This document shows, piece by piece, positions 3,378-60,481 of a stretch of 64,000 bases of DNA; position 1 is the first letter of the stretch, and the number at the start of each line of letters is the position of its first letter. Position numbers and translations under genes: made by a program. The stretch comes from Leucoraja erinacea. Taxonomy: Eukaryota. A model generated the notes under the pieces. That model had not been told where the DNA came from and did not search any database. It saw only the letters and a list, made by a program, of their open reading frames with translations. The stretch is from contig NC_073403.1 of assembly GCF_028641065.1 (NCBI RefSeq), positions 2,852,001 to 2,916,000 on the forward strand. The letters run 5' to 3'.

Positions 3378-3410
3378 GGCGACGTTTCGGGTCGAGACCC
3401 TTCTTCAGAC
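3378..3410 (-). ncRNA. Minimal type I hammerhead ribozyme motif (Penelope-associated), representative intact copy
   Basis: The - strand reads GU CUGAAGA A GGGU CUCG ACCC GAAAC GUC GCCC. Self-cleavage activity is not shown. Confidence 0.65.
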
Positions 3411-5346
3411 TTCCTATGTCTCTATGACTGCCTTCACAACACTATGTATGGTGTTTTGTACCCTGGTCACACAGTATACAATGCAAACAAGATTAGGCAT
3501 GTACATTGCAACATAAACTAAAGCTAACTAGCAATAATCTGTGTGTTGGTGGTTTCTCTATAGTTTGATCAGAGACTGCTGTGGTGGCCCCTTATTTGCA
3601 AACTGAACTGGACTTTTCCAAAAGGCCTAGATACCTCGGGTTCAAGATTGTGAACCTCAAGCTTTTTTAAATTGGAAGTATAAAGCTCCCACACTGAACA
3701 GTAGCTTTAGGAACAAGGAACAGCAGATGTTTCTTTACAGAAAAGGACACAATAGACAATAGGTGCAGGAGCAGGCCATTTGGCCCTTCGAGCCAGCACC
3801 GCCATTCAATGTGATCATGGCTGATCATCCACAATCAGTACCCCGTTCCTGCCTTCTCCCCATATCCCCCGACTCCGATATCTTGAAGTGCCCCATCTCC
3901 CACAAAGTGCTGGAGTAACTCAGTGGGTCAGGCAACATTGTTAGAGAACATGGATTGGCGACACTTTGTCCCAAAAAGGAACTGCAGATGTTGGTTTACA
4001 CCACAAATGGACACAAGTGCTGGAGTAACACAGCGGGTCAGGCAGCATCTCTGGAGAACATTGATAGGCGACATTTTGTAATAACAAGGAAATACAGATG
4101 TTGGGTTTTTTTTTAAACCAAAAATGGACATAATATGCTGGAGTAACTCAGCGGGTCAGGCAGCATTTCCCCAGAGACAGAATTACACCATCATTTTGTG
4201 TCCATCTTAGATGATGTTTTGAGTTGGAACCTTTCTTTAGATTAAACAATAGACAATAGGTGCAGGATTAGGCCATTTGGCCCTTCGAGCCAGCACCGCC
4301 ATCCAATGTGATCATGGCTGATCAAACGGAAGGTTTAGGTTTATCATTGTCATGCAAATTCAGGTACTGCAACAAGCTTCGTTTTACATGCTCTCCCATT
4401 AAATCAGATCCTATACATGTATACAATCAAGCCAAACTCAGGCACAATAGGTAGCGTGAAGAGAAAGGTAGAGTGTGGAACATAGCTCTCAGTGTATGTG
4501 CTGTTCCAATAATTCATGCAAACAAGACCAGACCAGGATTGACACAAAAAGCTGCACATCCCTGGAGAGGGTAGGGCAGCAGAGTTCATAAGTGATAGAA
4601 GCAAAATTAGGCCATTCGGCCCATCAAGTCTACCCCGCCATTCAATCATGGTGGATTTATCTCTCCCATCTAACCCCGTTCTCCTGCTTTCACCCCACAA
4701 CCCCCGACACCCAGACTAATCTAGATCTATCTCTGCCTTAAAAATACCCATTGAGTTGGTCTCCACAGCCCTCTGCGGCAAATCATTCCACAGATTCACC
4801 ACCCTCTGTTCCTCTCTGGAGAAACGGAATATGTGATCAGGTTTAGTTTCCAGCATAGTATGTATTAGCTTGTTGAGTTCAGTGAGGGCAATAGCAGCAT
4901 GACTAAGGGCAGATGGGCATAGAGCATCTGGGTGAGGTGTATAACTAAGCACTGCATGGATTGCAGCTGAAACAGTCGTGGTCCTCCACTGCTTCCCGCA
5001 GATCTGTGCTGGATTAGGTACATTTGCTGCAGGCTCCTTATTATGAGCAAGAATAGTTGGAATCACTGTGCCTACCAGTCAGCAGACACGGGAAGAAAGC
5101 AAGAGTGAACTACTTATATGCCTGGGTGATCACCCTTCCCTGGAATGGAAAACAGCGAATGGTGTTCACACCCCCCCCCCCCCCCCCCCCCCCCCATCTG
5201 GAAACCCACGGGATCCATCACAGGTACTGACCTCCCCACCAGCAAAAGCATCCACAGGAGTCACTGCCTCAAAAAGGCACCCGGCATCGTCAGAGACCCA
5301 CACCATAGTGGTCATGCTCTCACCCTACTCGCCATTGGGAAGGAGG

Positions 5347-5791
5347 NNNNNNNNNNNNNNNNNNNNNNNNNNNNNNNNNNNNNNNNNNNNNNNNNNNNNN
5401 NNNNNNNNNNNNNNNNNNNNNNNNNNNNNNNNNNNNNNNNNNNNNNNNNNNNNNNNNNNNNNNNNNNNNNNNNNNNNNNNNNNNNNNNNNNNNNNNNNNN
5501 NNNNNNNNNNNNNNNNNNNNNNNNNNNNNNNNNNNNNNNNNNNNNNNNNNNNNNNNNNNNNNNNNNNNNNNNNNNNNNNNNNNNNNNNNNNNNNNNNNNN
5601 NNNNNNNNNNNNNNNNNNNNNNNNNNNNNNNNNNNNNNNNNNNNNNNNNNNNNNNNNNNNNNNNNNNNNNNNNNNNNNNNNNNNNNNNNNNNNNNNNNNN
5701 NNNNNNNNNNNNNNNNNNNNNNNNNNNNNNNNNNNNNNNNNNNNNNNNNNNNNNNNNNNNNNNNNNNNNNNNNNNNNNNNNNNNNNNNNNN
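5347..5791. other. Assembly gap (445 N)
   Basis: Run of N. Confidence 1.
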
Positions 5792-7420
5792 TGTGTGCGT
5801 ATATCTGTGTGAGGGTGTGTATGTGTGGGAGTGTATATACACATAAATATATATACCCACACACAACATACATATACATGCACACACTATATATATATCC
5901 ACACACACATCTCTGTAAATTGTTCCTCATGTGTAGAGAGCGGATGTGCAAGTGAGATAACATGGGACTAGAGTGAATGGGTGACCGATGGGCGGCATGG
6001 AGTCTGCGGGCTGAAGGGCCTGTTTCCATGGTGTATCTCCGAACTAAACTCGCTCCCAAGGGGAAACCCGCCCAGAAGGAACAGCCGCTCGAGTTGAATA
6101 TCACAACATTGCTGGCTTCTGCCAAATTGAGCGCAGGCAACAGCAGCACCATTGATGGCTGGCACGCTGGTGGGTGTAAGAGGTTAAAATAAGTCTTTTG
6201 TGAGAAGGCGGGTTCCCACAGACTTTACTGGATCTTTGTACAGTGGACCAGAAACAAAAAATTAAAAACTTCTCCATCAAGATTCCCACCCTCATCCCTG
6301 CAGTAGACAGACATACAGCAGTTAAACAATTTTAAGCAGGGGTTTTTAAATGTTTGTGAATTAACAAAACAGGAACAACATCTCAAGAGACAGCCTGTAC
6401 TAATGAACCTTCATCTAACCAAAAACTTATAAGTGATGGGGGAAGACATACAAATCTATTTTAATCTTCATCTCAAGGTGTTCAATGAAACGGGGCATGT
6501 CCTTTGGGAGGTAGACAACAGTGCTGGAGAAACTCAGCGGGTGCAGCAGCATCTATGGAGCGAAGGAAATAGCCAACGTTTCGGGCCGAAACCCTTCTTC
6601 AGACTTTTAACTTCTGAAGTCCTTTGGGAGCTTCTAAACTTTTAATTTCAGATTTTAGGAATGTGAATGAGCACTGGTTATATATATATATATATATATT
6701 TTTTAATGTTTTAACATCAGGGTTTTACACTGGCCTAAAAAAGCAATCCAAACTTTCTGCTAAAAAAAACTCTTTCAGATCCAATTTCAATGTGTGACGT
6801 GAAATAAATGGATCAACGCCCTCTACACAGCCTTATCGCCAGTAAAATGTATAATATTCTCACGCCCCACTGACCCGCATTGATTCTTTTTTTAAAGATT
6901 TAAATCCAACAAGAGCCTGAGATAATTTTATTTCAAAAATGACAATTTAATTCCCAAAACATGTTTAGACGACGGGGGGTGTGGGGGAAACAAACACACA
7001 ATTAAAAAAACAAAATGTAACCAAGAAAGATAGCCTTCAGTACAATCCTGAGAAAATAAACTCGCTTGGAAAAAAAAAATCTCCACGTATGGTGAATGAT
7101 TTTATTTTGTGTGTCCACGGGGAGAGAGAGAAAAGGGTTTGGTTAATATACTTCCGCCTTCTTGGCGCCTTCAACGGTGAGAAGGTCCCGAAATATTTTT
7201 TTAAAAAACGGAAACCATGACACGATTTCGCACTTTGTCAAGTCTGAAGAAGGGTTTCGGCCCGAAACGTTGCCTATCTCCTTCGCTCCATAGATGCTGT
7301 TGCACCCGCTGAGTTTCTCCAGCATTTTTGTCTACCTTAGTCGAGTTACGGTTTGTTACAGGGGGTGATTTGTCGGGGCCACTACAGATTGTTTGTCGAT
7401 CTGGCAAAGCTGCTGCCGTT

Positions 7421-7645: not shown

Positions 7646-7695
7646 CGATCAGCGAGAACCCAGACCGCGCCACCATGGTGTCCATTCCTGCTCAC

Positions 7696-8154: not shown

Positions 8155-8162
8155 TTTTTATA
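8155..8162 (-). promoter_or_regulatory. Candidate TATA box of LASP1
   Basis: TATAAAAA on the - strand ~390 nt upstream of the ATG, ahead of a CT-rich leader. The TSS is not verified. Confidence 0.45.
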
Positions 8163-11100
8163 CGCCACACGCACGCAATCCACAGCCAATGTTCAATGAT
8201 TGTGCATCAATGTTCAATGTTTGTTGTTCGAAGATCAGACAGATTCAACTCACTGAAGAAGGGCTACACACAAAAAAACTGGAGAAACTCAGCGGGTGCA
8301 GCTATTTCCTTCACTCCATAGTTGCCGCCTCACCCGCTGAGTTTCACCAGCACTTTTGTCTACCTTCAACTCACTTTCATTGATTGAACTGAATAAAGAA
8401 GCAGTCATGTCGGCAAACACACACACACCCACACAACAGGTTGGGCGATGATTTATGCGCCTCACCCGGGTTTATTACAAGTCGAGTTGCTGGAGAAAAA
8501 CTCAGCAGCACTTTTGTCTACCTTCAACTCACTTTCATTGATTGAACTGAATAAAGAAGCAGTCATGTCGGCAAACACACACACCACCCACACGCAGGTG
8601 TGGGCGATGATTTATGCGCGGCTAGACGTGGCTGATAACGCAAGGGTTTATTACAAGTCGACAAAAAGTAAATGCTGGAGAAACTCAGCGGGTGAGGCAG
8701 CATCTATGGGACAGGATTGGGGTCTCTAGATGTATTAATTCATCGGGAAGTTGGCTTTCATAATTGATTGGAACAGAATTAGGCCATTCGACCCATCAAG
8801 TCTACCCCCATCATTCAATCATGGCTGATCTGTCTCTCCCTCAAACCCCATTCTCCTGCCTTCACCCCATAACCCCTGACACCCGTACTAATTAAGAATC
8901 TATCTCTGCCTTAAAAAATATCCATTGATTTGGCCTCCACGCCGTTCTGTGGCAATTAATTCCATAGAGGATTCCAGAGTCCCCGGTCTCTTCCTGTTGG
9001 AGGCCGCTCCTCATTGCAGCCCCAACGATAACGGAGACCCGACGAGAAAAGGTGGGGTCTCCCGTCCAGGGGGAGATTAAAAACCCCACCCCACCCCCAC
9101 CCCCCCCCCACACACACCCACCCCAAGAAAATATAACAAAAACTACATAAAAACATAGACAGAAAATAATAAAACGCGGACGGGCTGCAGAGGCCGCTGC
9201 TGACGAGAGTCGCGCCGCCCACCGGATTAAATGGATTGAAGGGCCGAATGGCCTACTCCTGCACCTACTGTCTATAGTCTAGATTCACCACCTAAAGGAA
9301 TATCCTTTTAATTCTGAGGCTAGTTTAGTTTAGATTATTGTCACGTGTACTGAGGTACAGTGAAAAGCTTTTGTTGCGCGCTAACCAATCAAACTAACTA
9401 ATCAAATCCCTCTCACCTGTATCCACCTATCAGTCTAAAGAAAGCTCCCGACCCAAAACATCACCCATCCATGTTCTCCAGAGATGCTGCCTGACCCACA
9501 GTTACTCCAGAACTTTGTGTCAACCTATCACTATGCAGCCACCCCCCCCCCCCCCCCCCCCCCCCCCCCACCCCTCCCCTCCCCCCCCCCCCCCCCAAAC
9601 TTTTCCAGGTTTCTGTCCTCCTATTACAATAAGTCCAAAGAAAGGTCCTGAAATGTCTCAGTTGTAAACACGTATTGTCTTTCCACTATCTGGATAGCAT
9701 CCAAAAGAAAGCTTTTCACTGTACCTCGGTACACGTGACAATAAACTCAACTCAATGAACTAATTGTTGCCGAAGATAGATACATAAAGCTTGAGTATCT
9801 CAGCCAGTCAGACAGCATCTCTGGAGAAAAAGAATAGGTGACGTTTCACGTCGAGACCCTCCTTCAGACTGAGAGTCATAGAAACATAGAAAATAGGTGC
9901 AGGAGTAGGCCATTCGGCCCTTCGAGCCTGCACCGCCATTCGATATGATCGTGGCTGATCATCCAACTCAGTATCCCATCCCTGCCTTCTCTCCATACCC
10001 CCTGATCCCTTTAGCCACAAGGGCCACATCTAACTCCCTCTTAAATATAGGCAATGAACTGGCCTCAACTACCTTCTGTGGCAGAGAATTCCACAGATTC
10101 ACCACTCTCTGTGTAAAAAATGATTTTCGCATCTCGGTCCTAAAAGATTTCCCCCTTATCCTTAAACTGTGTCCCCCTAGTTCTGGACTTCCCCAACATC
10201 GGGAACAATCTTCCTGCATCTAGCCTGTCCAACCCCTTAAGACATTTGTAAGTTTCTATAAGATCCCCCCTCAATCTTCTGAATTCCAGCGAGTACAAGC
10301 CGAGTCAGGGGAAAGGGAAACAAGAGACATAATCAAGAGTCAAGAGTGTTTTATTGTCACATGTCCCAGATGGAACAATGAAATTCTTACTTGCAGCAGC
10401 ACAACAGAATATGTAGCCATAGACGGTGATACAGAGAGAAAGTGTTCAAGAAGGAACTGCAGATGCTGGAAGATCGAGGTACACAAAAATGCTGGAGAAA
10501 CCCAGCGGGTGCAGCAGCATCTATGGAGCGAAGGAAATAGGCGATGTTTCGGGCCGAAACCCTTCTTCAGACTGATGGGGGGTTGGGGGGGGAGAGAAGG
10601 AAGGAAAAAGGGAGGAGGAGGAGCCCGAGGGCAGGGGGATGGGAGGGGACAGCTCAAGGGTTAAGGAAGAGAGAAGAATACAGAGAGAAACATTGACTGT
10701 CCATATCCTCCACAGACCTGTAGAGTTACTCCAGCACTTTGTGGTTTGCTCAGGATTCCAGAATCTGCAGTTCCTTCTGTCTCTACTGTCTCTTGGCTGG
10801 GTCAAAGTCAGGCGTGGCTTGATAACACTCCTGTGAACTATATCAGGATGCATTACCACTTTATAGGAGCCATATAAATATAAATGTTCTTCTGACTCTC
10901 AATTCATGCACTAATAAGTGAAAGTCATAAAAGCTGCCTGAGGGCAGTTTCCATTAAGTTAAATTAACTTAAGGGAGTGGTGGGTATATGGTGCGATCTG
11001 CCAGAGGAGGCAGAGAGGGCAGGTACTATAATTTGTTTAGAGATACAGCACAGAAACAGGCCCTTTGGCCCACTGAGTCCGTGCCAACCAGCGATCCCCA

Positions 11101-11377: not shown

Positions 11378-12524
11378 CGGGGAGAAGAAAGGAAAAAGGG
11401 AGGAGGAGGAGCCGCGGATGCAGTAGATGAGGTTGGAGGAGATGCAGGTGAACCTCTGTCGCACCTGGAGCGACTGCTTGGGTCCTTGAATGGAGTCGAG
11501 GGGGGAGGTGAAGGGACAAGTGTTGCATCTCTTGCAGTTGCAACGGAAAGTGCCCGGGGAGGGGGTGGTACGAGAGGGAAGGGAAGAATTGACAAGGGAG
11601 TTACGGAGCGAGCGGTCTTTGCGGAAGGCTGACATGGGGGGAGATGGGAAGATGTGGCGAGTGGTGGGGTCACGTTGGAGGTGGCGAAACTGACGGAGGA
11701 TTACTTGTTGTATTTTACGGCTGGTGGGGTGAAAGGTGAGGACTAGGCGGACTCTGCCCTTGGTGCGAGTGGGGGGATGGGGAGAGAGAGCAGTGTTGCG
11801 GGGTATGGAAGAATCTCATCTGTGGTGGAGGAGGGGAACCCCCGTTCCCTGAAGAATGAGGACATTTCAGATGCCCTGGTGTGGAACGCATCATCCTGGC
11901 AACAGATGCGGCGTAGACGGAGGAATTGGGAGTAGGGGATGGAGTCCTTACAGGAAGCAGGGTGGGAAGAAGTGTAGTCCAGATAGCCACTGGAAATTGG
12001 AGGAACAGCACCTCATATTTTGCTTGGGGAGTCTGCATCCTGCGGGCATGAACATTGAATTCTCCCAATTGTGTTAGCCCTTGCTGTCTCCTCCCCTTCC
12101 TCAGCCCTCGGGCTCCTCCTCCTCCTTTTTCCTTCCTTCTCCCTGCCACCCCCTATCAGTCTGAAACATAGAAACATAGAAATTAGGTGCAGGAGTAGGC
12201 CACTCGGCCCTTCGAGCCTGCACCGCCATTCAATATGATCATGGCTGATCATCCAACTCAGTATCCCGTACCTGCCTTCTCTCCATACCCCCTGATCCCT
12301 TGGCCACAAGGGCCACATCTAACTCATCTAACATCTAACATCCACATCTAAGACATCTAACGTCTGAGGAAGGGTTTCGGCCCGAAACGTTACCTATTTC
12401 CTTCGCTCCGTAGATGTTGCTGCACCCGCTGAGTTTCTCCAGCATTTTTGTGAGCCATGGGAGTCAGAAGGTTTATAGTGGATTATATTTTGATTTTCCA
12501 GCATCTGCAGTTCCTTCTTAAACA
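11378..12524. mobile_element. Rearranged Penelope-like element fragment (linker/GIY-YIG region, inverted segments, nested CR1 tail)
   Basis: - strand: FRKDRSLRNSLV...CKRCNTCPF...FTCISSNLIYCI. + strand: KLEEQHLIFCLGSLHPAGMNIEF*, then 3'UTR and a hammerhead motif at 12361-12394. Confidence 0.82.
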
Positions 12525-17507: not shown

Positions 17508-17541
17508 AGTCTGAAGAAGGGTTTTGGCCCGAAACGTCGCC
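17508..17541 (+). ncRNA. Minimal type I hammerhead ribozyme motif
   Basis: AGU CUGAAGA A GGGU UUUG GCCC GAAAC GUC GCC. Confidence 0.65.
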
Positions 17542-18779
17542 TATTTCCTTTGCTCCATAGATGGACTGTTTGCCCTCCTCCCATTAGGGAGGCGGTACAG
17601 GAGCCTCAGGTCTCGTACCAGTAGGATGAGAAACAGCTTCTACAATAATACCATCACATTGCTGAACTCGGAGTCCTGCCGATAGACTTCTCCAGTCTCT
17701 CCGTCCACATTGTTCGATTATTGTTTGATTATTCTGTATTTTTATTTTTATTTCTATATTGCACTATACTACGGACTGACGCTAAACTGCATTTCGTTGT
17801 ACCCATACTCGTATTTGTGCAATCACATTAAAGTTGAATTGAATTGAATTGAATGTCTTGTATCCAGGACAAGGGGTCACAGCTTAAGGATAAGGGGGAA
17901 ATCCTTTAAAACCGAGATGAGGAGAACTTTTTTCACACAGAGAGTGGTGAATCTCTGGAACTCTCTGCCACAGAGGGTAGTTGAGGCCAGTTCATTGGCT
18001 ATATTTAAGAGGGAGTTAGAAGGGAGTTGACTCTGACATCGGGGGGAGAGGGAAGTGCAGGGGAGAGATACGTTTTTTTTTCCTTCCATCACAGCGAGGT
18101 GGAGATGCGCTGTGATGGATGTCTGTGTAAATTGTGTTGTGTCTTGGGTCTTTTTTTTATTGTATGTATGACTGCTGAAAATTAGTTTTCACTTGTTTTG
18201 TTATTTGTTCAAGTGACAAATAAATTGTAGCATTGCCACTTGTCATTTCATGCACATCTCGTATGTGTATGTGGGGATAAGAGGGTATTGACTTGTATCA
18301 CAGCTCGTAACACCAAAGATCCTATAGCAAAGCCATGATCATATTGAATGGTGTGCAGGCTCGAAGGGCCGAATGGCCTACTCCTGCACCTAATTTCTAT
18401 GTTTCCATGTATGTATGTTATGATTGTGTTTATAATTTGTTTGGTTGTTTTTGTTGTTTGTCTTTTCCACAAAAGTCCGCGAGCATTGCCACTTTCATTT
18501 CACTGCACATCTCGTATGTGTATGACTCTGACATCGGGGGGGGGGGGGGGGGGCAGGGGAGTGGATAGATAAGTTTATTTTGGCCTTCCATCACAGCCAT
18601 GTGATGGATGTTTATGTAAAATGTAATTATGTTGTGTCTGGGGTCTATTTGTGTGTAATGTATGGCTGCAGAAACGGCATTTCATTTGGACCTCCAGGGG
18701 TCCAAATGACAATTAAATAGACTATTGACTATTGATATGTGACAAATAAACTTGACTTGACTTGTGTCACAGCTCCTAA

Positions 18780-18940: not shown

Positions 18941-18952
18941 GCGCCAGCCACC

Positions 18953-19610: not shown

Positions 19611-21547
19611 TCATGCATCTCTCAACTGTGGAGCCAGAGTGATGCAAAGGCCACTTCATGGCACAAGTCAGCAGCCTTGTACTTCCACGGTCCCTTTCCC
19701 AGCACTGTAGTTCTGTGTGTGCCTCCTTTAACAGTCCTGTCTTTCTGGTTTCATAGAAACATAGACATTAGGTGCAGGAGTAGGCCGAATGGCCTACTCC
19801 TGCACCTAATTTCTATGTTTCTATTCGGCCCTTCGAGCCTGCACCATTCGCCATTCAATATGATCATGGCTGATCATCCAACTCAGTATCCCGTACCTGC
19901 CTTCTCTCCATACCCCCTGATCCCTTTAGCCACAAGGGCCACATCTAACTCCCTCTTAGCCAATGAACTGTGGCTTCAACTACCCTCTGTGGCAGAGTTC
20001 CAGAGATTCACCACTCTCTGTGCGAAAAATGTTTCCCCCTGTAGTCCTGTATGCCCTCCCTCCTCTTTAGCAGTTGTGCAGGGTCTTGGTGAGAGTGAGA
20101 CTATTATCCAGGTCAAGGGGTCACAGTTTAAGGATAATGGGGAAATCTTTTAGGACCGAGATGAGGAAAACTTTTTTCACACAGAGAGTGGTGAATCTGT
20201 GGAATTCTCTGCCGCAGAAGGTAGTTGAGGCCAGTTCATTAGCTATATTTAAGAGGGAGTTAGATGTGGTCCTTGTGGCTAAAGGGATCAGGGGGTATGG
20301 AGAGAAGGCAGGTACAGGATACTGAGTTGGTTGATCAGCCATGATCATATTGAATGGCTGTGCAGGCTCGAAGGGCCGAATGGCCTACTCCTGCACCTAT
20401 TTTCTATGTATCTATGGAAAAAGTCAGCAGCCTTGTACTTCCATGGTCCCTTTCCCAGCCTTGTAGTTCTGTGTGTGCCTCCTGTCTTTCTGGTTTCCCC
20501 CTTTAGTCCTGTATGCCCCCCCCCCCCCCCCCCAAACAGTTGTAGTTCTGTGTTCTTTAGCAGCCTTTAACAGTGTTGTAGTCATGTATGGCCCCCCTTC
20601 AGCAGTCTTTACTTTTGTACCTCCTCCCCACAAACTTAGTAGCCCTGTACCCCCTTTAGCAACCTTGTTTCCAGCTATCTTCCCATTCCTTGAAGAACAC
20701 CAAAATATTGGATTGCAGCATCAATTGCAGTGAATCTTTCGTTTTCTACTAAGTTTATGTTGAGGTATGTGCGCCTTTGAACTGCTGCTAGGCTGGGAAA
20801 TGGTAGTTCTGGTTCAGTGTTCTTCACTCTTTATTTTTCACTTTTGCACTACCTGATGTACCTGTCAATGATATGAATTGTTGAGAGGTGTGTAAGACAC
20901 TTGGCCATGATAACAAACAATACCAATACAAGGCCTTTTATTGCCACGTGTACCAATGTTAGGTCCAGCGATGTATCCTTATCACCTTGAATATAATATG
21001 AAGGACTGGCATCCCTGTCCTAAGATATAAATGTGCTTCACCAAGTTAATTATTGAGTTGAGTGGGTAACAGTTGTCACAAGCAGAGTCAATGCAGTCTT
21101 GAATTTAGAACGGCGGTGATCTTTTTAAATGGGTATTGTTTGTTTTAAAATTTCCTCTGACTTGAGGTGTCTTAAATCAAGAGGTCGGCCCCAATAACGA
21201 GTGTAAAAAGGAAAGGTAAAAAGTCTGAACAAGGGTTCTGACACAAAACATCGTCCATCTCATTTCTCCAGAGATGCTGCCTGGCCCACTGAGCTGCCCA
21301 GCATTTTGTGTCTTATCGCACAAAACAATTGGCCATTTGGGGCTGGGAAATTTCTTGACATGAGAATAGTAACGCTTTTGAATTCTCTAGCCAATAAGGA
21401 CTATGGAGATTTAAACGTTAATGATTTTTAGATACTAATGCAAGGCAATATTTTAGACCAGGTTTGAGGGAAATACGAGTGGACTTGAATTAATTCTAGT
21501 AATTAAGTATTTTCCTCCTGGGTTAAATAATCCACTCACCTCTATAA

Positions 21548-21685
<138 letters not shown>

Positions 21686-23884: not shown

Positions 23885-24163
<279 letters not shown>

Positions 24164-24868: not shown

Positions 24869-25008
24869 CACCCTCCTAAAAGCACTTGCTTGGTCCATGC
24901 CGTGGCTGTGGTGAGTTGTCGTGGATGGGGAAAGTAATTCATTCATTGCTCTTGGGTGAGATTGCAGATATTTTGTGCTGTACATTCTCAATCGACAGTG
25001 GAACAGTT
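24869..25008 (+). ncRNA. SNORA21: SNORA21-like H/ACA snoRNA (copy 1, RPL23 intron 3)
   Basis: Two-hairpin layout with H box AAAGTA (24931-24936) and ACA at 25003-25005. The blocks AAAAGCACT..GAGTTGTC and TTGGGTGA..TCAATC resemble SNORA21, whose known host is RPL23. Paralogous to 26627-26763. Confidence 0.82.
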
Positions 25009-26626: not shown

Positions 26627-26763
26627 TCCCTTCCAAAAAGCACTTGCTTTGCCTGTTCTCAGTGGCTCGGTGAGTTGTCAAGGGAGGCAAAGAAACACAT
26701 TGCTTTTGGGTGAGGTGGCAGCTTTTAACGTGCTGTTCAATCTCAATCAGTGATGTGACATTT
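26627..26763 (+). ncRNA. SNORA21: SNORA21-like H/ACA snoRNA (copy 2, RPL23 intron 4)
   Basis: H box AAAGAA (26689-26694). The second hairpin, CATTGCTTTTGGGTGAGGTGGCA...TCAATCAGTGATGTGACA, ends in ACA at 26758-26760 and closely resembles SNORA21. Confidence 0.88.
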
Positions 26764-40513: not shown

Positions 40514-42219
40514 TGATCAGAGGATTCTTCTCTCAAGAGGACCAAGAAATCAGGAGAAAATCATACGTTTTAAATAAGGATGTCTTTTTTTTTCAAGGAC
40601 GTTAGCTATTCTGAAGGACTGACTTAAACGCAATAGCAAGGAGAGTGTTGTGAGTTGAGACAAAAGATGCGTGTGACTGAAAATATGAAGTAAATCCTTA
40701 AATAAAGCAGTTATGGAACGGCAGAATGTTATCAATGTTTGCTTAATTTGGACGTTAGTCCTGTGTTTGATATAAATCCACTTTGTAGGTGTCTCCATGT
40801 TGTATAGCAGAACACAGAACAGTACAGTGCAGGAGCAGGCCTTCTGCCTGCTATGTATATGTCAAACATGATGCCAAATTAAGATGTAGAAACAAGGAAC
40901 TGCAGATGCTGGATTACAAACCAAGACATCATCAGTGTTTAGTTTAAGAAGGAACTGCAGATGCTGGAAAAATCGAAGGTAGACAAAAAGTGCTGGAGAA
41001 ACTCAGCGGGTGCGGCAGCATCTATGAAGCGAAGGAATAGGTGAAGTTTCGGGTCGAGATCCTTCTTCAGAATGATGTGGGGGTGGTGGGGGGCGGGAAG
41101 AAGAAAGGAAGAGGCGGAGACAGTAGGCTGTGGGAGAGCTGGGAAGGGGAGGGGAAAGAGGGAGAATGCAAGGACGACCTGAAATTGGAGAAATCATTGT
41201 TCATACAGCTGGTACACAAAATTGCTGGAGAAACTCAGCGGGTGCAGCAGCATCTATGGAGCGAAGGAAATAGGCAACGTTTCGGGCCAAAACCCTTCTT
41301 CAGACCGCTGGGATGTGTTTAGTTTAGATCAGAGTGTTTAGTTTAGTTTAGTTTAGTTTAGATTAGAGCAGTTTCGAGATACAGAGCAGAATCAGGTCAT
41401 TCAGCGCACCGAGGTTGCGCCGACCAGCGATCCCCGTACACGAGCACTAACCTACACAATAGAAACATAGAAACATAGAAATTAGGTGCAGGAGTAGGCC
41501 ATTCGGCCCTTCGAGCCTGCACCGCCATTCAATATGATCATGGCTGATCATCCAACTCAGTATCCCGCACCTGCCTTCTCTCCATACCCCCTGATCCCCT
41601 TAGCCACAAGGGCCACATCTAACTCCCTCTTAAATATAGCCAATGAACTGGCCTCAACTACCCTCTGTGGCAGAGAGTTCCAGAGATTCACCACTCTCTG
41701 TGTGAAAAAAGTTTCTTCTCATCTCGGTTTTAAAGGATTTCCCCTTTATCCTTAAGCTGTGACCCCTTGTCCTGGACTTCCCTAACATCGGGAACAATCT
41801 TCCTGCATCTAGCCTGTCCAACCCCTTAAGAATTTTGTAAGTTTCTATAAGGGTCAATTTACAATCTTTATCAAAACCAATTAACAGATGGTGTAACTCA
41901 TCGATTCTGGCAGTATCTGCAGAGGGAACGGAATCATTCCCTCCATAGATACTCGACGCTCCAAAGTTGATCGATGATCATATGCGGAATGTTGCAGTTA
42001 GGAGGAGGGATAAGGAGCGGACCTTGGACGACCAAATTTGGTTCTCGATTCCCCCCCACTCTGGGCAGGAGAATCTGTGCATTTACCCGACCTATTCCCC
42101 TCGTGATTTTGTACACCTCTATGAGATCAGCATGATTGCAGAAGGGATTATTATCATCTAGTGCAGGAGGTGGCAGCAGAGTTCAGCTTTAGTGACATAG
42201 AGGAGCTGCTGTAGCGGCG

Positions 42220-42975: not shown

Positions 42976-43433
42976 GTGAGTGTCCGACACACACACACAC
43001 ACACGGGCCCGGGGAGAGGGGAGACCGGGGACGGGGAACGAGAGAGAGAGAGAGAGAGAGGCATGGAATCGAGGGGCTCGGGCACACTGAGGCCTAGCGG
43101 ATGTGGAGGGGAGGGGGAGGGGAGGGGGGAGAGAATGAGGGCTGAGTCAAGTGAGGGGTGGATGGATGGAGGGGGAGAGAGTGCCAGAGGAGGAGGGAAG
43201 GAGTGGAGGAGGAGAGGAGATGAGGAAGGGGAGGGAATTTGGTGTCTTGGTCCTCCAAAATATTCCAAATGGAATTTAAACTGTGGAGGTGGTGGAGGGA
43301 GGGCTGAAGCCAGAAAGGGTTATTGGGAAGAAAGAGCTACTTTAAATTTAGTTGAGGAGGGGAGAGAATGAGAGGAGATGAGGAATGGGGAGGGAATGAG
43401 GGGTGATGGCGAGCTGGAGGGGAGGGGAGGGGT

Positions 43434-43765
43434 TGTGTCCTGTCAAAGTGATCCACCTGTGTCCTGTCGAAGTGACCCAGTTGTGTCCTGTCAAAGTAAT
43501 CCACCTGTGTCCTGTCAGAGTGATCCACCTGTGTCCTGTCAGAGTGATCCACCTGTGTCCTGTCAGAGTGATCCACCTGTGTCCTGTCGAAGTGACCACC
43601 TGTGTCCTGTCAGAGTGATCCACCTGTGTCCTGTCAAAGTGACCACCTGTGTCCTGTCGAAGTGATCCACCTGTGTCTTGTCAAAGTGATCCACCTGTGT
43701 CCTGTCAAAGTGACCCACCTGTGTCCTGTCAAAGTGACCCACCTGTGTCCTGTCAAAGTGACCCA
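43434..43765 (+). repeat. Minisatellite of ~14 x 23-24 bp (CACCTGTGTCCTGTCAAAGTGATC) in CWC25 intron 1
   Basis: Contiguous near-identical units with no spacers. Confidence 0.95.
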
Positions 43766-44177
43766 GTGCCATCATAACCCATGTCTTGGTTTCTTGGTCC
43801 TCCCAAAATATTCCAAATGGAATTTAAACTGGAGGTGGTGGAGGAAGGGCTGAAGCCAGAAAGGGTCTTTGGGAAGAAAGGGCTACTACCTGTGAGGGGT
43901 GGGAGGTGATTATTTTTGTTGTGAGTTTTTCAATCCTGTTTACCAGCAAGGATAGACACAAAGCACTGGGGTAACTCAGCAGGCCAGGCAGCATCTCTGG
44001 AGAACAGCGACAGGTGATGGTTCGGGTCCTTCAAGGACTTTGGAAGTTACTCTGACGTTCGACAAAGCGCAGGCAGACACCACACTGAAGACTAATGTCA
44101 AGCATTAACTCTGCTCCTACTCTCCTCTTCTGTATCAAAGTGCTATGGGTTGTTTTCAAGCACAGTACAGTCCAGAA

Positions 44178-45037
44178 CCTTGCATTCCCTCTATCTCCAT
44201 CCCTTCCCCACCCTAGTTCTCCAATTAGTTTCACTGTCCTCCTGATTCATTTTCCTGTTTGCATGCCTCGTTGTCAGCTTCCCTTCAGTCAACAATGAAC
44301 TATTGTACATTTCCTTGATCAATGTCTGCTTTGATCTGTCCTTTTCATACCTTACATGCTCTTTGTACCCTTCCATACCTCTAGTTTCCCTCTCCCCTTG
44401 CTCCCAATCTGAAGAAGGGTCTTGACCCGAAACATCAACCATTCCTTCTCTCCAAAGATGCTGCCTGACCCTGAGTTGCTTGATCATTTTGTGCCTATCT
44501 TTGGTGTAAACCGGCATCTGCAGTTCCTTCCTACACAGTACAGAGATTGTTGCACCTCCTCCAACCTCATCTACTGTAGCCGCTGTTCCAGGTGTCAGCT
44601 TCTGTACACATCGACGAGACCAAGTCCAGGTTCGGCGATTGTTTCGCTAAACACCTCCGCTCAGTCCGCCTCAACCTACCTGACCTCCCGGTTGCTCAGC
44701 ACTTTAACTTCCCCTCCCATTCCCAATCTGACCTTTCTGTCCTGGGACTCTTCCATTGTCAGTGTGAGGCCCAGCGTAAATTGGAGGAACAGCACCTCAT
44801 ATTTCGCTTGGGTAGCTTACACCCCAGCGGTATAAACATTGACTTCGCTATCTTCAAATAGCCCTTGCTTTACTTCTGTCTCCATCCCTTCCCCTTCCCA
44901 GTTCTCCCACCAGTCTTACTGTCTCCAACTTTCTATCCCTGTCCCGTCCACTCCCCCGACATCAGTCTCGACCCGAAACGTTGCCCATTCCTTCTCTCCA
45001 GAGATGCTGCCTGTCCCGCTGAGTTACTCCAGCATTT
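44178..45037 (+). mobile_element. Penelope-like element 3' fragment, partial-tandem arrangement
   Basis: CTSSNLIYC.RC...ETK.RF....KHLRS......LPVAQHFN...H......LEEQHLIFRLGSLHPSGINIDF (GIY-YIG), flanked by two 3'UTR/hammerhead segments (44409 and ~44962). Confidence 0.82.
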
Positions 45038-46217
45038 CTTTGGGAAGATGTGATGGCTCTAATGAGAGTGCAGGAAAGCTCTCCCGCTTTTCCCAAATAA
45101 CTGTTTGAAATGCTAACATTCTTTTCAGCACAATGTTTAGTTTAGTTTATCATTGTCAACGTGTGCTGAGGTACAGTGAAAAGCTTTTTTATTGTATGCT
45201 ATCCAGTCAGCGAAAAGACTGTCCATGACTGTACATCCCTAATCTGAGGAAAAACATTCTTACCATAGAGGGAGTACAGAGAAGGTTCACCAGACTGATT
45301 CCTGGGATGTCAGGACTTTCATATGAAGAAAGACTGGATAGACTCGGCTTGTACTCGCTAGAATTTAGAAGATTGAGGGGGGGATCTTATAGACACTTAC
45401 AAAATTCTTAAGGGTTGGACAGGCTAGATGCAGGAAGATTGTTCCCGATGTTGGGGAAGTCCAGAACAAGGGGTCACAGTTTAAGGACAAGGGGGAAATG
45501 AGAAAGGACCGAGATGAGAAAAACATTTTTCACACAGAGAGTGGTGAATCTGTGGAATTCTCTGCCACAGAAGGTAGTTGAGACCAGTTCATTGGCTATA
45601 TTTAAGAGGGAGTTAGATGTGGCCCTTGTGGCTAAAGGGATCAGGGGGTATGGAGAGAAGGCAGGGATGGGATACTGAGTTGGATGATCAGCCATGATCA
45701 TATCGAATGGTGGTGCAGGCTCGAAGGGCTGAATGGCCTACACCTGCACCTATTTTCTATGTTTCTATGTTTCTATTACAATCAAGCCAAGTTGGTGTAT
45801 AGATACAGGATAAGGGAATATCATTTAGTGAAGTCTAATGACCGATTAAAGTTTTCCGAGGGTCTCCAGTGAGGTAGATGTTTGCTCAGGACTGCGCTCT
45901 GGTTGGTGATAGGATGGTTCAGTTGCCTGATAACAGCTGGGAGGAAACTGTTGCTGAATCTGGAGGTGTGCGTTTTCACACTTCTATACCTCTTGCCTGA
46001 TGGGAGAGGGGAGAAGAGGGAGTGGCCTGGGGTGAGACTGGTCCCTGATGATGCTGGCCTTGCCGAGGTAGATGGGAGGGAGGGAGGTTGGTTTGCGTGA
46101 TGGTCTAGGCTGTGTCCGCAGCTCTCTAAATTCCCGTATTCTTATCCTTGCTGATCTTTTTCTTCTGAATTATATGGCTTATTTCAAAGTAAAATCTCCT
46201 TCATCTGTCACTTGCAG

Positions 46218-46390: not shown

Positions 46391-48908
46391 GTAAGTCGCT
46401 AGCGTTCTGGCCGTTTGCGCGCTGACTGCAAAACGGAGGAAGCCAGGAAAGCAAGAATCAATGAAGATAGACACCAATTGCCGGAGTAACTCAGCAGGTA
46501 AGGCAACATCTTTGGATAAAAAGGAATAGGTAACATTTTGGGCCAAGACCCTTCTTCAGATTGAGAGTCAGGGGAAAGGGAAACTAGAAGCATGTCTGAA
46601 GAAGGTTATCGACCCGAAACGTCACTTATTCCTTTTCTCCAGAGATGCTGCCTGTCCCGCTGAGTTACTCCTCCAGCATTTGGTGTCTATCTTCGGTGTA
46701 AACCAGCACCTGCAGCCTTAGAAATTAGAAACGGTATCGGGCCTGTGAAAGAACATCAGTGCACAATTCTGCCTTTTTTGCTTTACCCTCAAACTCCCTT
46801 TCCAATAAATCCTTACAGGCTTTTAAATCTATTTATAAAACAAGATTTTAATCTTAGTTTCAAGCCGACTGTTCTCGATCCTGACAGGTGAAGTCGATTC
46901 CCTTTCGCACCTCCCTATATCTATTGTGTGGGAATAAACTGCAGGTGCTGGTTTATACCCAAGATAGACACAAAATGCTGGAGTAACTCGGCAGGTCAGG
47001 CAACATCTTTGGAGTAAGAGGATGGGTGATGTTTTGGATCGGAACCTTTCCTCAGACTCAGAAGATGGGTTTCCAACCCATCCTTTTTCTCCAGAGATGC
47101 TGCTTAACCCGCTGAGTTAATCCAGCACTTTGTGTCTAACTTCCATAAATCTCTTGACGGTATTTAAGCCACACATTTCGACAACACCATAGCCATCTTG
47201 ATTGTGGGTGAACTGTCACTATATGTCATGTTGTTACTTGCGGGCAGAGCACCAAGGCAAATTCCTTGTATATGAATACTTGGCCAATAAACTTATTCAT
47301 TCATTCATAAATGCATTCATTCATGGATAATTACCCCATCAATTGAGCTGTGTGACCGCATCTTTATAAATTAGTTTGATATTTTTAAGCTCTTATTTAT
47401 TAATAGCAACGCTCCACTGATAATATGTGTCTGGGTAAGTTACGCATCTTTTATGGAGAAAGTTTGCTGTTCTTTCTTTCCACCACTCTAAAATGTATTA
47501 GCAATAATTAATCTGTAGTTCTAAAGACAGAAAAAATATTTAGACCTTTGGCAAATCTTATGTCCTGGCTTATGAAGGGTTTCTGAGAAGATGCCGAAAA
47601 ATGCAAAAATTAAAGGCTAATCAAGATTTTTGTGCTTGTTGAAAAAGGGAAAGAAAGTTGCAGATACTGGAAAACTGAAGTAAAATGAAGAAAGAGCTGA
47701 GTGGGACCTAATTTGTTGTTTGTTTCACTATCATAGATTGCATGTGGTGGGCTGAAGGGCCTGTTTCTGTGCTGTACAAATCCATGCATCTGTGTCTCTG
47801 AGATTCTAAAGAGGCCTTGAATATTCTGGATTTATTTGTGTTATTTCTTTCATTTCCTTTCATGTTGACAAAATTGAATTTTTATTTTTTTGAAGAAAAT
47901 GTCTCTCAAGAGACATTAATTTGAGATTTTAAATTGGAATTGGTAATATCGAGAATGAGCACAGTTAATTAGTTTAGTTTGTTGTGTTTAGTTTATTATG
48001 CCGTGAAAAGCTTAGCGTACAGTCTCAACTTATTAAAATCTACCTTGTCTGTTCAGTGGTAGACTCAAACAGCATGGAAGTTGGTTCTTCAGCCCAACAT
48101 GTCCATGCCAATCAAGATGTCCTTATGTGCCATTTATCCGTCTTTAGAACATGGAACATGGTAGAGTACAAGAACAAGGTTATTCGGCCCACAATATCAG
48201 TGCCAAACATGAGGCCAAGATAGATTATCATTATAGACAATAGATGCCATTCGGCCCTTCGAGCCAGCACCACCATTCAATGTGATCATAGCTGATCATC
48301 CCCAATCAGTACCCCCATTCCTACCTTCTCCCCATTTTCATAGAAACATAGAAAATAGGTGCAGGAGTAGGCCATTCGGCCCTTCGAGCCTGCACCGCCA
48401 TTCAATATGATCATGGCTGATCATCCAACTCAGTATCCCGTACCTGCCTTCTCTCCATACCCCCTGATCCCCTTAGCCACAAGGGCCACATCTAACTCCC
48501 TCTTAAATATATACAATGAACTGGCCTCAACTACCCTCTGTGGCAGAGAGTTCCAGAGATTCACCACTCTCTGTGTGAAAAAGTGAAAATTTTGATATTC
48601 GTTCATGACATAATCTGGATTGGCAGCTTGTTCGTAGATTAAAGATAGACACAAAATGCTGGAGTAACTCAGCGGGACAGGCAACATCTCTGGAGAGAAG
48701 GAATGGGTGACGTTTTGGGTCGAGACCCTTCTTCAGATGTTTATTTTGATTGTATGATACAGTGGCACCTGTGGCGTATATAAGTCCCCAGAGGTCTCCT
48801 CAGTGTGAAAGTATGGATTGAGTTTATACAGTTGCCCCCTCCTTGTCTGACTTCCTCGAGCTCTTCGCAGTGTTAAAGTGTAATGTCAGGTTGGATTTTT
48901 GTCTGCAG

Positions 48909-57084: not shown

Positions 57085-57148
57085 ACGGCGTGAAAAGAGC
57101 ACTTCACCCACGTCAGTCCAGAAGAAAATCGCTGGTTACGGTTTAAAG
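57085..57148 (+). CDS. CWC25: CWC25 exon 6
   Basis: TTGCAG| RREKSTSPTSVQKKIAGYGLK |GTTTGT (GYGL motif). Confidence 0.87.
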
Positions 57149-58449
57149 GTTTGTCCTCGTGCATCTTTGCTGCTTCTAAAATGCCTGGGTTTTTCTATTC
57201 GGTGTGTTGCAAATCCAGGTAATTGCTCTCAAAATGAAAAGCGTCCAAGTCTCTCATCATAGACGACACACACAACAATTTGGTGTCTTTATGTTATTGC
57301 AGCCAACCAGTGTGTCATTACGGCAGGTTTTAAGTGAACGTATCCATAACTTAAAATGTAATGATCACTCTTGACTCTAACTGCGCAATTGTAGGTGATT
57401 AAAGCTCTTTAATAACACACGGCAGTTGAGTTGGTTGTCATATTAAATATATCAACAGCAGATTAAAGTATTAATCGCCAAACTAATTATCAGATGTGTC
57501 ATTGTTGTTGCTTTTAACAGTACAGTTGAAATCCTAGCCTTTCATCACATAAAGGGTCGGGCTATGATACAAGTTTACGTTTAATACTGTCGTATGTAGT
57601 GAGGTACAGTGAAAAAACTTTGTGTTGCATGCTTTCAGTTAGGTCAGTTCTGGAATTAATTTAAATGTGTGCTCACTGAATATCAACAGTTTATCCATTG
57701 TCTTTTGTTAAAATTTCATAATTTTAAGCATATAAAATGTCCCCTGCTGAAGTTGCTCAGCATGTTTCACAGGAGTGTGGTTATTGCAATGCATAGCACA
57801 GTATTTTCTCCCTACTCAGTTTTAGGAATCTGCAGTTTTGTCTTTATCCATCGACATAGCAACAGAATTAGGCCATTCGGCCCATTGAGTTCAATCATGG
57901 CCAATCTATCTTTCCCTCTCAACTCCATTCACCTGCCTTCTCGCCGTGCTGTTGGGGGGGGGGGGGGGGTCCAGAACCAGGGGCCACACAGTTTAAGAAT
58001 AAGGAGTCGGCCATTTAGAAAGGAGACGAGGAAACACTTTTTCTCACAGAGAGTGGTGAGTCTGTGGAATTCTCTGCCTCAGAGGGCGGTGGAGGCAGGT
58101 TCTCTGGATGCTTTCAAGAGAGAGCTAGATAGGGCTCTTAAAAATAGCGGAGTCAGGGGATATGGGGAGAAGGCAGGAACTGATTGGGGATGATCAGCCA
58201 TGATCAAGTTGAATGGCGGTGCTGGCTCAAAGGGCCGAATGGCCTACTCCTGCACCTATTGTGTATTGTACTGTTTGACCGCATTACCACGCAAGCACCT
58301 GTAAATCTCCTTTAAAAAATTCCCATTGAGGTGGCGTCCACAGCCGTCTGTGGCAATGAATTCCACAGATTCACCATTTCGTGTTTCACAGCCTTAAATG
58401 GGAGGATGTTCCTTTCCGCCTTTCAGTGATCTTGCCATCTGCTCTCCAG

Positions 58450-58670
58450 GTGAAAGATTCTCACAGGATTAAACAACGACCTGCTTCCCCATCCCTTGAC
58501 CACGGTGAGGTGGCGCACAAAAGCAGGCCCAGGTCCAGGTCACGGTCGGGGAGCCACTCGCGATCAACAGCGCGGCAGTCTCACAAACGCAACAAGCATG
58601 AAGATTCGCGGGGTCGAAGATCCAGGTCATCATCTCGATCCCCTCCAAAGCACTCGAAGGCGCATTCACA
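58450..58670 (+). CDS. CWC25: CWC25 exon 7 (RS-rich)
   Basis: CTCCAG| VKDSHRIK...SRPRSRSRSGSHSRS...RSRSSSRSPPKHSKAHS CA|GTGAGT. Confidence 0.88.
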
Positions 58671-59619
58671 GTGAGTAAGACAAAATGTTTAAGCAAGAAC
58701 GGCAGATGCTGGAAAAATCGAAGGTAGACAAAAATGCTGGAGAAACTCAGCGGGTGAGACAGCATCTATGGAGTCTGAAGAAGTGTCTCGACCTGCAACG
58801 TCTCTTACTCCTTCGCTCCATAGATGCTGCCTCACCCGCTGAGTTTCTCCAGCATTTTTGTCTACCTTCACAGTGAGTCCATCACCTATCTCACCTGCTT
58901 TGTTATTGAAAGAAAGTTTTGTTTAATTCTTCCTCTCCTGCAGTTGCTGACGTGCTACAGTGCATGTTAGTGGCCGGCAGACTCTTATCCCAAATGCCAG
59001 GCTTGACGGTAACCACGGTAACCACAGGGTGGTGCAGCAGAAGAGTTGCCGCCTCACAGCGCCAGAGACACGGGATCCTGACCGCAGGTGCTGTCTGTGT
59101 GGAGTTTGCATGTTCTCCCTGTGACTGCGTGGGTTTCCTCCCAAGTGCTCCGGTTTCCTCACACGCTCCAAAGACGTACAGGCTTGTTACCACGCTGTAT
59201 CTGTCAAACTAAAAAACTAAAACCGGACGGAGCACCTGTGGAAACCCACCGGGTCACAGAGGGAACATGCAAACTCCACACGGACAGCACCCGAGGCCTG
59301 GATCGAATCAAGGTCCCTGGCGCTCTGAGGCAGCCCTAAAATTTCGGGAAAACATTTTTTTTGAACGAGAGACCCGGGTTCGATCCTGACTTCAGGTGCT
59401 GTCTGCACAGAGTTTGTACCTTTTCCCTGTGACCGTGTGGGTTTTCTCTGGGTGCTCCGGTTTCCTCCCACATTCCAAAGATGTGCAGGTTTGTATCTTA
59501 ATTGGCTTCTGTAAATTGAGCCTAGTGTGTCGGATAGAACTGGTAAACGGGTGACCGTGGGATGAGCACGCATGCCAAGCTGCAACGGCTTGTGTTCCTA
59601 ATACCATCCTAGCCATGTA

Positions 59620-60355
59620 GATTCAGATTCAGATTCAGATTCAGATTCAATTTTAATTGTCATTGTCAGTGTACAGTACAGAGACAACGAAATGCATTTA
59701 GCATCTCCCTGGAAGAGCGACATAGCAAATGATTTGAATAAATAATAATAAGTGTCCGGAGGGGGTGGTGATTGGCAGTCACCGAGGTACGTTGTTGAGT
59801 AGAGTGACAGCCGCCGGGAAGAAGCTGTTCCTCGACCTGCTGGTTGGGCAACGGAGAGACCTGTAGCGCCTCCCGGATGGTAGGAGGGTAAACAGTCCAT
59901 GGTTGGGGTGAGAGCAGTCCTTGGCGATGCTGGGCGCCCTCCACAGACAACGCTTGCTTTGGACAGACTCAATGGAGGGGAGCGAGGAACCGGTGATGCG
60001 TTGGGCAATTTTCACCACCCTCTGCAATGCCTTCCAGTCGGAGACAGAGCAGTTGCCATACCATACTGTGATACAGTTGGTAAGGATGCTCTCGATGGTG
60101 CAGCGGTAGAAGTTCACCAGGATCTGAGGAGACAGATGGACCTTCTTCAGTCTCCTCAGGAAGAAGAGACGCTGGTGAGCCTTCTTGATCAGAGTTGAGG
60201 TATTGTGGGTCCAGGAGAGGTCATCGGAGATGTTGACTCCCAGGAACCTGAAGCTAGAAACACGTTCCACCTCCGTCCCGTTAATGTGGATGGGGGTGTG
60301 CGTGCCGCCTCTGGACTTCCTGAAGTCTACAATGAGCTCCTTGGTAGACATTGAA
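59620..60355 (-). mobile_element. Rex1/Babar-type non-LTR retrotransposon 3' fragment with (GAATCT)n tail
   Basis: TKELIVDFRK...FRFLGVNISDDLSW...KKAHQRLFFLRRLKK...LLPSGRRYRS. A shorter copy is at 39920-40265(+), with related 3' ends at ~17561-17855, 26940-27330 and 63235-63580. Confidence 0.88.
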
Positions 60356-60447
60356 AGAGCTGTAGAATGATCAGTTCTAACGAGAAGGTAGACAAAAATG
60401 CTGGAGAAACTCAGCGGGTGAGGCAGCATCAATGGAGCGAAGGAAAA

Positions 60448-60481
60448 GGTGACGTTTCGGGTCCAGACCCTTCTTCAGACT
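60448..60481 (-). ncRNA. Minimal type I hammerhead ribozyme motif downstream of a Penelope GIY-YIG C-terminus
   Basis: The - strand reads AGU CUGAAGA A GGGU CUGG ACCC GAAAC GUC ACC. Confidence 0.65.

Follow-up and report, generated by a model that had tools for sequence, protein, structure and literature searches.

Hammerhead-bearing modules of a Penelope-like element in the skate genome, probably dispersed as inert by-products of reverse transcription

The commonest short repeat in a 64,000-nucleotide stretch of the Leucoraja erinacea genome (NCBI RefSeq assembly GCF_028641065.1, contig NC_073403.1, positions 2,852,001 to 2,916,000 of the forward strand; hereafter the window, meaning this whole stretch) contains the core of a hammerhead ribozyme, which raises the question of where so many potential ribozymes come from and whether they act on the host transcripts in which some of them lie. 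An initial annotation, made from the sequence alone, had ascribed the repeat to Penelope-like elements (PLEs) and proposed that the genome holds a very high number of latent ribozymes, some of them sense to host pre-mRNA. Our analysis supports the origin and the number and argues against an effect on host RNA. The explanation that we favour, with moderate confidence, is that these are minimal type I hammerheads derived from the pseudo-long terminal repeat (pLTR) of a PLE, that the dispersed inserts are dead by-products of reverse transcription and that host RNA is left uncut.

The repeat is far more frequent than chance would allow. A strict hammerhead descriptor matched the window 12 times, compared with a mean of 0.19 (maximum 2) in 100 Markov-1 simulations, and the window holds 52-53 fragments of the hammerhead family, exceeding its approximately 32 3' ends of a type that we take to be CR1. 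The nine listed and six degenerate copies of the initial annotation were all found at their given coordinates and strands. Across the 2.19-Gb genome, the exact core pattern has 49,850 matches, equally divided between the strands (24,804 and 25,046), and the reversed pattern, used as a control, has 0 matches genome-wide; the copy number is therefore as high as had been claimed. The window is enriched approximately 4-fold over the genome average (6 exact copies, with 1.4 expected). In 70 evenly chosen 10-kb stretches (700 kb), we counted 276 fragments, or 394 per Mb, which extrapolates to ~8.6×10^5 genome-wide (standard error ~10%). The core and a 4-bp stem II are retained by 21 of these 276, the palindromic stem III also by 18 and the 2-bp stem I additionally by 14, giving an extrapolated ~4×10^4 to 7×10^4 nominally intact copies per genome. 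Within the window, all four features are kept by 6 of the 25 copies that have the 5' part of the motif (5 of 24 from the scan, plus the copy at 17508, which has a short tail, was dropped by the scan and was scored separately), and the core CUGANGA...GAAA...UH is intact in 11 of the 24 scanned copies. An Rfam scan of the window returned no hammerhead match at E≤1.

We traced the source of the motif with window positions 11500-12165 as query, which retrieved many near-identical long copies from the genome, and with follow-up stretches; 21 loci were selected. At 15 of these 21, two same-strand motifs stand 3.3-4.1 kb apart with a reverse transcriptase (RT)/GIY-YIG open reading frame (ORF) between them, confirming the proposed Penelope origin and giving a parent layout of pLTR(motif), RT/GIY-YIG ORF, pLTR(motif), in which the motif lies ~120 nt past the stop codon. 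The ORF matches RVT_1 (E=5.9e-7). Its GIY-YIG motif was identified by eye in the natural ORF; the GIY-YIG Pfam model has no match in the parent query, and PF01541 is listed on several homologues. The linker between the RT and the endonuclease (EN) contains a CX4CxxC finger, and a CX2-5CxxC linker marks the Neptune and Nematis clades (PMC8557442). As judged by its sequence, the parent is an EN-bearing PLE of Neptune/Nematis type; an early label, 'Poseidon', was dropped because of the CX4CxxC linker. The ORF has 3,091 homologues among 7,999 scored, and the closest named ones come from sharks and rays, with 62-73% identity, a result that puts the host among cartilaginous fishes. None of the 21 loci has an uninterrupted frame from the first Met to the end of the EN, the longest open stretch being 1,052 codons, and the first Met of the long frame lies ~165 nt 3' of the motif. 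The family also shows partial tandems, inverted 5'-truncated copies and a 30-40-nt tail.

Three variants of the element were seen in passing. At locus L039:3017-3330, a proline-rich ~30-nt tandem repeat has lengthened the N-terminal portion of the ORF. At locus L079:1864-2475, two intact motifs follow each other in the same orientation at a distance of 611 nt, accompanied only by short ORF ends; in such a retrozyme-like unit, a dimer could form in cis. A further subfamily (L143:1490-1526, L144:1495-1528) has a distinct 30-nt segment directly upstream of the motif, again with YAG or YGG at its end.

How the dispersed copies arose can be read from their ends. They are inserts of 90-135 bp with 9-15-bp target-site duplications (TSDs) and two 3' end sites ~35-40 nt apart. 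Positions are counted from the T (U2.1) that immediately precedes CTGA of the core, taken as +1; the AG upstream of it occupies -1 (A) and 0 (G), H17 falls at +29, and the sequence past the cut begins at +30. In 1.46 Mb surveyed, 248 of 549 fragments retain the 5' part of the motif; 118 of them have a junction within ~10 nt upstream, 97 were assigned upstream sequence of the family type (a number that includes some inverted junctions) and 21 were flagged as inverted. Among 190 young copies from the same survey, the truncation hazard per nucleotide peaks at -4..+3 with 0.066 (39 of 74 at risk). It is 0.009-0.023 across the bulk of the module, falls to 0.004 where the ribozyme would cut (2 of 124) and does not exceed 0.004 upstream. 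Subfamilies that are absent from our references can inflate the -4..-3 bins, a point against taking this peak at face value, and we therefore chose the duplications as a cleaner test of the 5' ends. Among the 42 non-inverted copies that start at -4..+3, 17 are flanked by TSDs of 9-15 bp, compared with only 8 of 128 that start at +4..+60 (Fisher p=7e-7), 3 of 53 that start further upstream and 2 of 368 shifted controls. Of the 27 TSD-flanked inserts that start after -60, 17 begin at -2..+3, 11 of them at -1/0 (accuracy 1-2 nt), and their 3' ends fall at +89..98 (19 inserts) or +128..137 (8 inserts); a filler of 0-33 nt, sometimes made of inverted tail pieces, separates duplication and insert. 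The 5' ends thus cluster at the conserved YYAG|TCTGA directly before the core and not at the cleavage site, where short copies show no excess (3 starts at +29..31 among 316, with a mean of 2.9 per nt over +10..59). One long insertion, L077, has three motifs (at 732, 4750 and 5810) that share the same core mutation, apparently because an element with a dead core was copied; transposition without cleavage would account for this.

We asked what has been conserved. The loopless palindromic stem III and the extra A after A9, which the initial annotation had pointed out, are both kept. Subfamilies were compared in 161 copies with a pyrimidine-rich upstream segment, 97 of which form six clusters of at least 5, the other 64 being excluded. 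Invariant columns across the six subfamilies number 5 of 41 upstream, 3 of 4 at -3..0, 26 of 31 in the motif, and 21 of 30 and 28 of 35 in the tail. All catalytic-core positions are invariant except H17, which is C or U. The variable positions of the motif are loop L1, 11.4 (A/G), 11.1, H17 (C/U) and 1.1 (A/G); variation at 11.1 is confined to one small cluster and is likely CpG decay. Stem III is ACGU in all six subfamilies. In 19 copies, stem II cells are 97.4% paired and A9.1 is invariant, and 92% of cells are paired overall. Stem I consists of only 2 bp (U2.1-R1.1, G2.2-C1.2), shorter than the 4-6 bp expected of PLE minimal hammerheads. Two-sided compensatory change was found at 0 of 8 pairs in these 19 copies, which are too closely related for a strong test, and one-sided U-A/U-G changes occur at two pairs, with no excess over shuffles. 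The difference in stem II between subfamilies that had been described as structure-preserving does keep the pairing, but by a one-sided change from U-A to U-G. Likewise, the core is invariant across subfamilies, as an expected excess of conservation over the flanks would have it, but the 65-nt tail is nearly as conserved and the core is therefore not exceptional. The conserved unit is a module of ~100 nt that starts at YYAG.

Decay and folding both bear on whether single copies could cleave. Among 197 genomic copies, G12 is intact in 138 and lost to CpG decay in 59, and the CG of stem III is intact in 103 and decayed in 94, in a sample whose anchor filter favours intact 5' halves; 9,846 copies genome-wide depart from the intact pattern solely by G12-to-A. 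In predicted folds, the GAAGAAGG of the core forms a helix with the downstream CCUUC, so that the core would be sequestered, and the probability of stem II is ≤0.03 in all 11 folded constructs (6/6 and 5/5). For a 51-nt copy, the predicted active double hammerhead reaches -7.1 kcal/mol, compared with -31.0 kcal/mol for the best minimum-free-energy dimer. The earlier caution that monomers may be inactive is, in our judgement, the likely state.

To see whether host transcripts are affected, we examined 659 kb of intron sequence from LASP1, RPL23 and CWC25 (we take two of these to be LASP1 and CWC25 by their peptide motifs) and from five genes of the glypican family. Family fragments are sense in 96 cases and antisense in 110 (p=0.37), intact copies in 7 and 8, and CR1 fragments, as a control in the same introns, in 70 and 63; none of 10 PLE subsets has a significant orientation bias in these introns. 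We also searched four RNA runs that carry the same species label, from fragmented or 3'-primed libraries in which host read-through dominates and which are poorly suited to cleavage mapping. The module is present in 14,388 and 14,695 of 12.9 million bulk records (0.11%), with depth maximal on motif plus tail, and none of the four runs, fragmented or 3'-primed as they are, has a pile-up of molecule ends at the cut site or elsewhere. The top single carrier in bulk RNA is an H1-like mRNA, presumably of a linker-histone H1.0-like gene as judged by its sequence, which has an intact copy antisense in a long polyadenylated 3' untranslated region (UTR) (L143:1526-1622; C37:7620607-7620703). The balanced intronic orientation, the lack of read-end pile-up and the antisense placement in the top transcript speak against the proposal of latent ribozymes in host pre-mRNA. 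The dispersed copies are likely inert inside host genes and, as far as these proxies indicate, do not cleave host RNA. The numbers also show that intact minimal hammerhead cores can be tolerated by the thousand as sense copies in the introns of a vertebrate.

The clustering of the 5' ends likely marks the start of the element RNA. YYANWYY, the initiator consensus, fits 89 of the 97 copies with native upstream sequence (YYAGTCT), with its +1 A at the 5'-end peak. We suggest that RNA polymerase II uses the A of YYAGTCT as an initiator-like start site, so that the capped RNA of the element would begin with the hammerhead. The protein of the element would nick both target strands and begin cDNA internally at the tail sites, as the anole element does in vitro. 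Initiation at the 5'-proximal tail would leave only 90-135 nt to the RNA 5' end, so that such an RNA start predicts exactly the 90-135-bp micro-inserts seen, and initiation at the tail of the 3' pLTR would produce long copies. Twin cDNAs could pair at the TCAG-N-CTGA palindrome and yield head-to-head inserts. The template would be mostly uncleaved RNA; cleavage, if any, would need a dimer and help from the protein and would serve the element, through cap removal or cutting of tandem transcripts, and not the host. After insertion, decay would set in at the two CpGs that overlap G12 and stem III. A bolder and more tentative version, which we put forward as a possibility with the odds against it, is that an initiator has been fused to the 5' edge of the hammerhead, that the ribozyme acts on the element mRNA as a decapping switch, triggered by protein and dependent on dimers, and that internal RT starts at 90-135 nt from its cap have given the genome several hundred thousand promoter-less, ribozyme-headed micro-inserts that resemble short interspersed elements (SINEs) without a SINE transcript.

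Several observations weigh against this explanation. The RNA runs gave no observed transcription start, and the initiator step is drawn from sequence; nor is an extra cap-derived G evident at insert junctions. Among 40 long copies, which are top hits and hence biased to an intact start, 7 start at -6..+4, 3 at +46..55 and 1 at exactly +30, and 29 extend past the proposed start on its upstream side, which requires frequent read-through or tandem templates. The copy at +30 (L225; C12:56128390, minus strand) is full-length and starts at the first base of the cleavage product; this one example may be a copy of cleaved RNA. The intron test covers few intact copies (15), and solo intronic copies lean antisense (43 sense, 61 antisense; p=0.095). 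Finally, when the H1-like gene is used to calibrate strand, 77-84% of single-cell reads over the motif are antisense, as a loss of sense RNA might produce. However, the antisense excess is equally strong over the EN region, far from the motif (L069:1200-1860), and priming bias is therefore a sufficient cause.

The same 5' cluster could have arisen if a pLTR intron ended at helix I, with the conserved pyrimidine tract and YAG as its 3' splice site, and if splicing factors bound there, or the end of a processed RNA, halted reverse transcription on unspliced template. A YYAG after a pyrimidine tract suits a 3' splice site just as well as an initiator, tract and YAG are present in all subfamilies, and the intron end of D. 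virilis Penelope maps to the 5' end of helix I (PMC4209133). Moreover, the tract is covered at a depth of 30-40 in the bulk poly(A) data, ~10-fold below the 400-570 of the EN region, a drop that single-cell depth does not show. Yet no conserved donor was found at the ORF end, the best 15 of 146 RNA joints include no GT..AG joint, and the left flanks of the inserts are target duplications and short fillers with no common exon; we regard splicing as an unlikely source of the cluster. Two specific forms of splicing were looked for and set aside: spliced genomic copies with a stop-codon donor joined to the motif gave 0 matches, under one donor hypothesis, and host-exon splicing into the AG was dropped when the dominant RNA junction proved to be the genomic antisense insertion in the H1-like 3' UTR, with TSDs as left flanks. 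Alternatively, an antisense template might prime itself at the TCAG-N-CTGA palindrome, in which case the cluster is a fold-back site and not an RNA start. Such self-priming has been proposed for a rotifer Penelope (PMC3846280), and 940 exact head-to-head palindromes centred on TCAG-W-CTGA genome-wide, inverted junctions in 27 of the 69 copies that start at -4..+3 and abundant antisense RNA all suit it. But the other 42 of these 69 are not inverted, 17 of them with clean TSDs, and this direct class is left unexplained; subfamilies with CTAG or TTAG lack the full palindrome, and the anole protein uses sense RNA in vitro (PMC11167929). We give self-priming little credence as the origin of the cluster.

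A different challenge concerns the fate of the copies rather than their origin: sense copies in one pre-mRNA might dimerize, or the element protein might help them, so that host transcripts are cut at a relevant rate. The supply of cores is large, with the 14-21 intact copies in 700 kb behind the ~4×10^4 to 7×10^4 extrapolated and the module in 0.11% of bulk reads, single-cell reads over the motif are ~80% antisense, and the anole ribozyme cleaves with its protein present (PMC11167929). Set against this are introns that show no orientation purge, the predicted sequestration of the core by CCUUC, a dimer held by only 8 intermolecular bp, an antisense excess that extends to the EN region and RNA runs without a read-end pile-up. 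Monomers were uncleaved and dimers cleaved at a low level in the experiments of PMC4209133. Cutting of host transcripts at a relevant rate is thus very improbable, and inert by-products of reverse transcription remain our preferred explanation.

An element of this kind is already known, and what is informative here is the copy number and the statistics of the insert ends. Minimal hammerheads in both pLTRs of metazoan PLEs, and their solitary spread, were described in 2014 by Cervera and De la Pena (PMC4209133). Like the minimal hammerheads of that study, the skate motif has a type I core without loop III, palindromic 15.2/16.2, an extra base between 9 and 10.1 and a G10.1-C11.1 pair, and lies in both pLTRs, with most copies solitary and spread genome-wide. 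Unlike the Schistosoma families described there (stem I 4-5 bp, stem II 7-8 bp), it has a stem I of 2 bp and a stem II of 4 bp. The 49,850 exact copies compare with ~9,000 in X. tropicalis and ~4,000 in the coelacanth under the descriptor of PMC4209133, with the caveat that methods differ, and the available part of that paper makes no mention of cartilaginous fish.

Work on the anole Poseidon element PAc (Frangieh et al. 2024, PMC11167929) showed that the protein nicks and extends both strands of the target, that the tail is defined by two sites of internal RT initiation, that hammerhead mutants leave insertion in vitro unchanged and that cleavage requires the protein. The skate element is similar in that its hammerhead lies where pLTR and ORF meet, its tail is delimited by two 3' end sites and nothing indicates cleaved RNA as the main template. 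It differs from PAc in its CX4CxxC linker and in a first Met ~165 nt behind the motif rather than at stem II, and a cluster of 5' ends at the upstream edge of the motif is not described for PAc in the consulted part of that paper. As in the pLTR of D. virilis Penelope, a YAG adjoins helix I of a hammerhead with a 2-bp stem I (PMC2377424, PMC4209133). D. virilis Penelope has an internal TATA-less pLTR promoter (Schostak et al. 2008, PMC2377424), with a start site 46 nt upstream of a proven 75-bp intron, whereas the skate start site and intron are only candidates. Animal non-LTR retrozymes (Li et al. 2026, bioRxiv 10.64898/2026.07.22.740005) are similar in being non-autonomous and Penelope-derived, with a type I hammerhead and monomer derivatives, and one chondrichthyan genome has them; they are defined by tandem arrays in which each unit has a hammerhead (maximum 14,255), complete in two or more consecutive units, whereas the window copies are solitary or head-to-head and do not form such arrays.

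We found no study of PLE hammerheads in cartilaginous fish beyond the one species in the partly consulted 2026 retrozyme preprint, although the supplements of Lunse et al. 2017 may list shark or skate examples, and our literature search found no paper on the copy number or the 5'-end cluster of this family. If the count is right, this is the largest hammerhead load in the literature that we examined. What the hammerhead does in PLEs is described as an open question (PMC8557442), and ~50,000 intact and ~860,000 fragmentary copies offer unusual statistical power on it; the insert ends suggest that cleaved RNA is rarely a template and that the RNA has a defined 5' end where the ribozyme begins.

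The window itself illustrates most of these forms. Its principal copies are as follows.

3327-3411, minus strand: micro-insert (hammerhead plus tail) with a complete motif at 3378-3410, sense in LASP1 intron 1.
6509-6605, minus strand: micro-insert with a 12-bp target-site duplication, core intact, stem I of 1 bp, sense in LASP1 intron 1.
7241-7337, plus strand: micro-insert with a complete motif, antisense in LASP1 intron 1.
10480-10653, minus strand: pLTR with the native pyrimidine tract, a motif with CpG-decayed stem III and a long tail.
11409-11989, minus strand: inverted segment of the parent ORF (RT thumb and linker; tblastn, query amino acids 398-598, 84-91% identity), head-to-head with 11982-12167.
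11982-12167, plus strand: GIY-YIG C-terminus with its stop codon, then a pLTR that runs to the beginning of the hammerhead core, where a presumed CR1-type 3' end is inserted (12168-12360).
12361-12451, plus strand: complete motif (N7 = G) and tail, 3' of the CR1-type insertion.
17508-17563, plus strand: complete motif with a truncated tail, intergenic.
21222-21313, plus strand: decayed micro-insert with G12 lost, sense in an RPL23 intron.
30588-30678, plus strand: copy with CpG decay of G12 to A.
37902-38013, no single strand: head-to-head pair, whose minus-strand motif (37940-37972) lacks the G10.1-C11.1 pair and one stem I pair.
40968-41204, minus strand: pLTR fragment with a decayed motif.
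41211-41306, minus strand: micro-insert with a complete motif, intergenic.
44405-45042, plus strand: partial tandem of motif plus tail (44405-44500), GIY-YIG remnant (44494-44855) and pLTR with a 5'-broken motif (44954-45037).
46465-46692, no single strand: head-to-head pair in CWC25 intron 2, whose sense copy (46593-46627) has a stem II mismatch.
48643-48737, minus strand: micro-insert antisense in CWC25 intron 2, with A in place of G12.
58722-58867, no single strand: inverted-repeat insert, a tail fragment head-to-head with a decayed motif.
60386-60684, minus strand: 5'-truncated copy with GIY-YIG C-terminus, pLTR, complete motif (60448-60481) and tail, flanked by a 14-nt duplication.

LASP1 is on the minus strand, its exon 1 at ~7730 and its exon 2 ~39 kb beyond the window. 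RPL23 and CWC25 are on the plus strand, with exons 2 and 3 of CWC25 at ~46220 and ~48910. These exons bracket the copies that the initial annotation had placed in LASP1 and CWC25. The three it named as sense, at 3378, 6572 and 46593, are indeed sense in those introns, but only the first is complete; the third combines its stem II mismatch with an inverted partner 30 nt upstream. The reported position of the motif downstream of a GIY-YIG C-terminus holds at 11982-12068 and 60589-60684, but the 12361 copy is cut off from the ORF end by the ~190-bp CR1-type insertion inside the motif; a third GIY-YIG remnant upstream of a motif, at 44494-44855, had gone unreported.

The window also holds some minor features. 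The CR1-type insertion at 12168-12360 lies within a hammerhead core, and a partial duplication leaves a complete motif downstream of it. The sole Rfam match over threshold in the window is SNORA21 in an RPL23 intron (82 bits), with a weaker SNORA21-like copy (37 bits) in the preceding intron (24870-25008, 26628-26763). A 24-nt tandem array occupies two blocks at 43381-43813.

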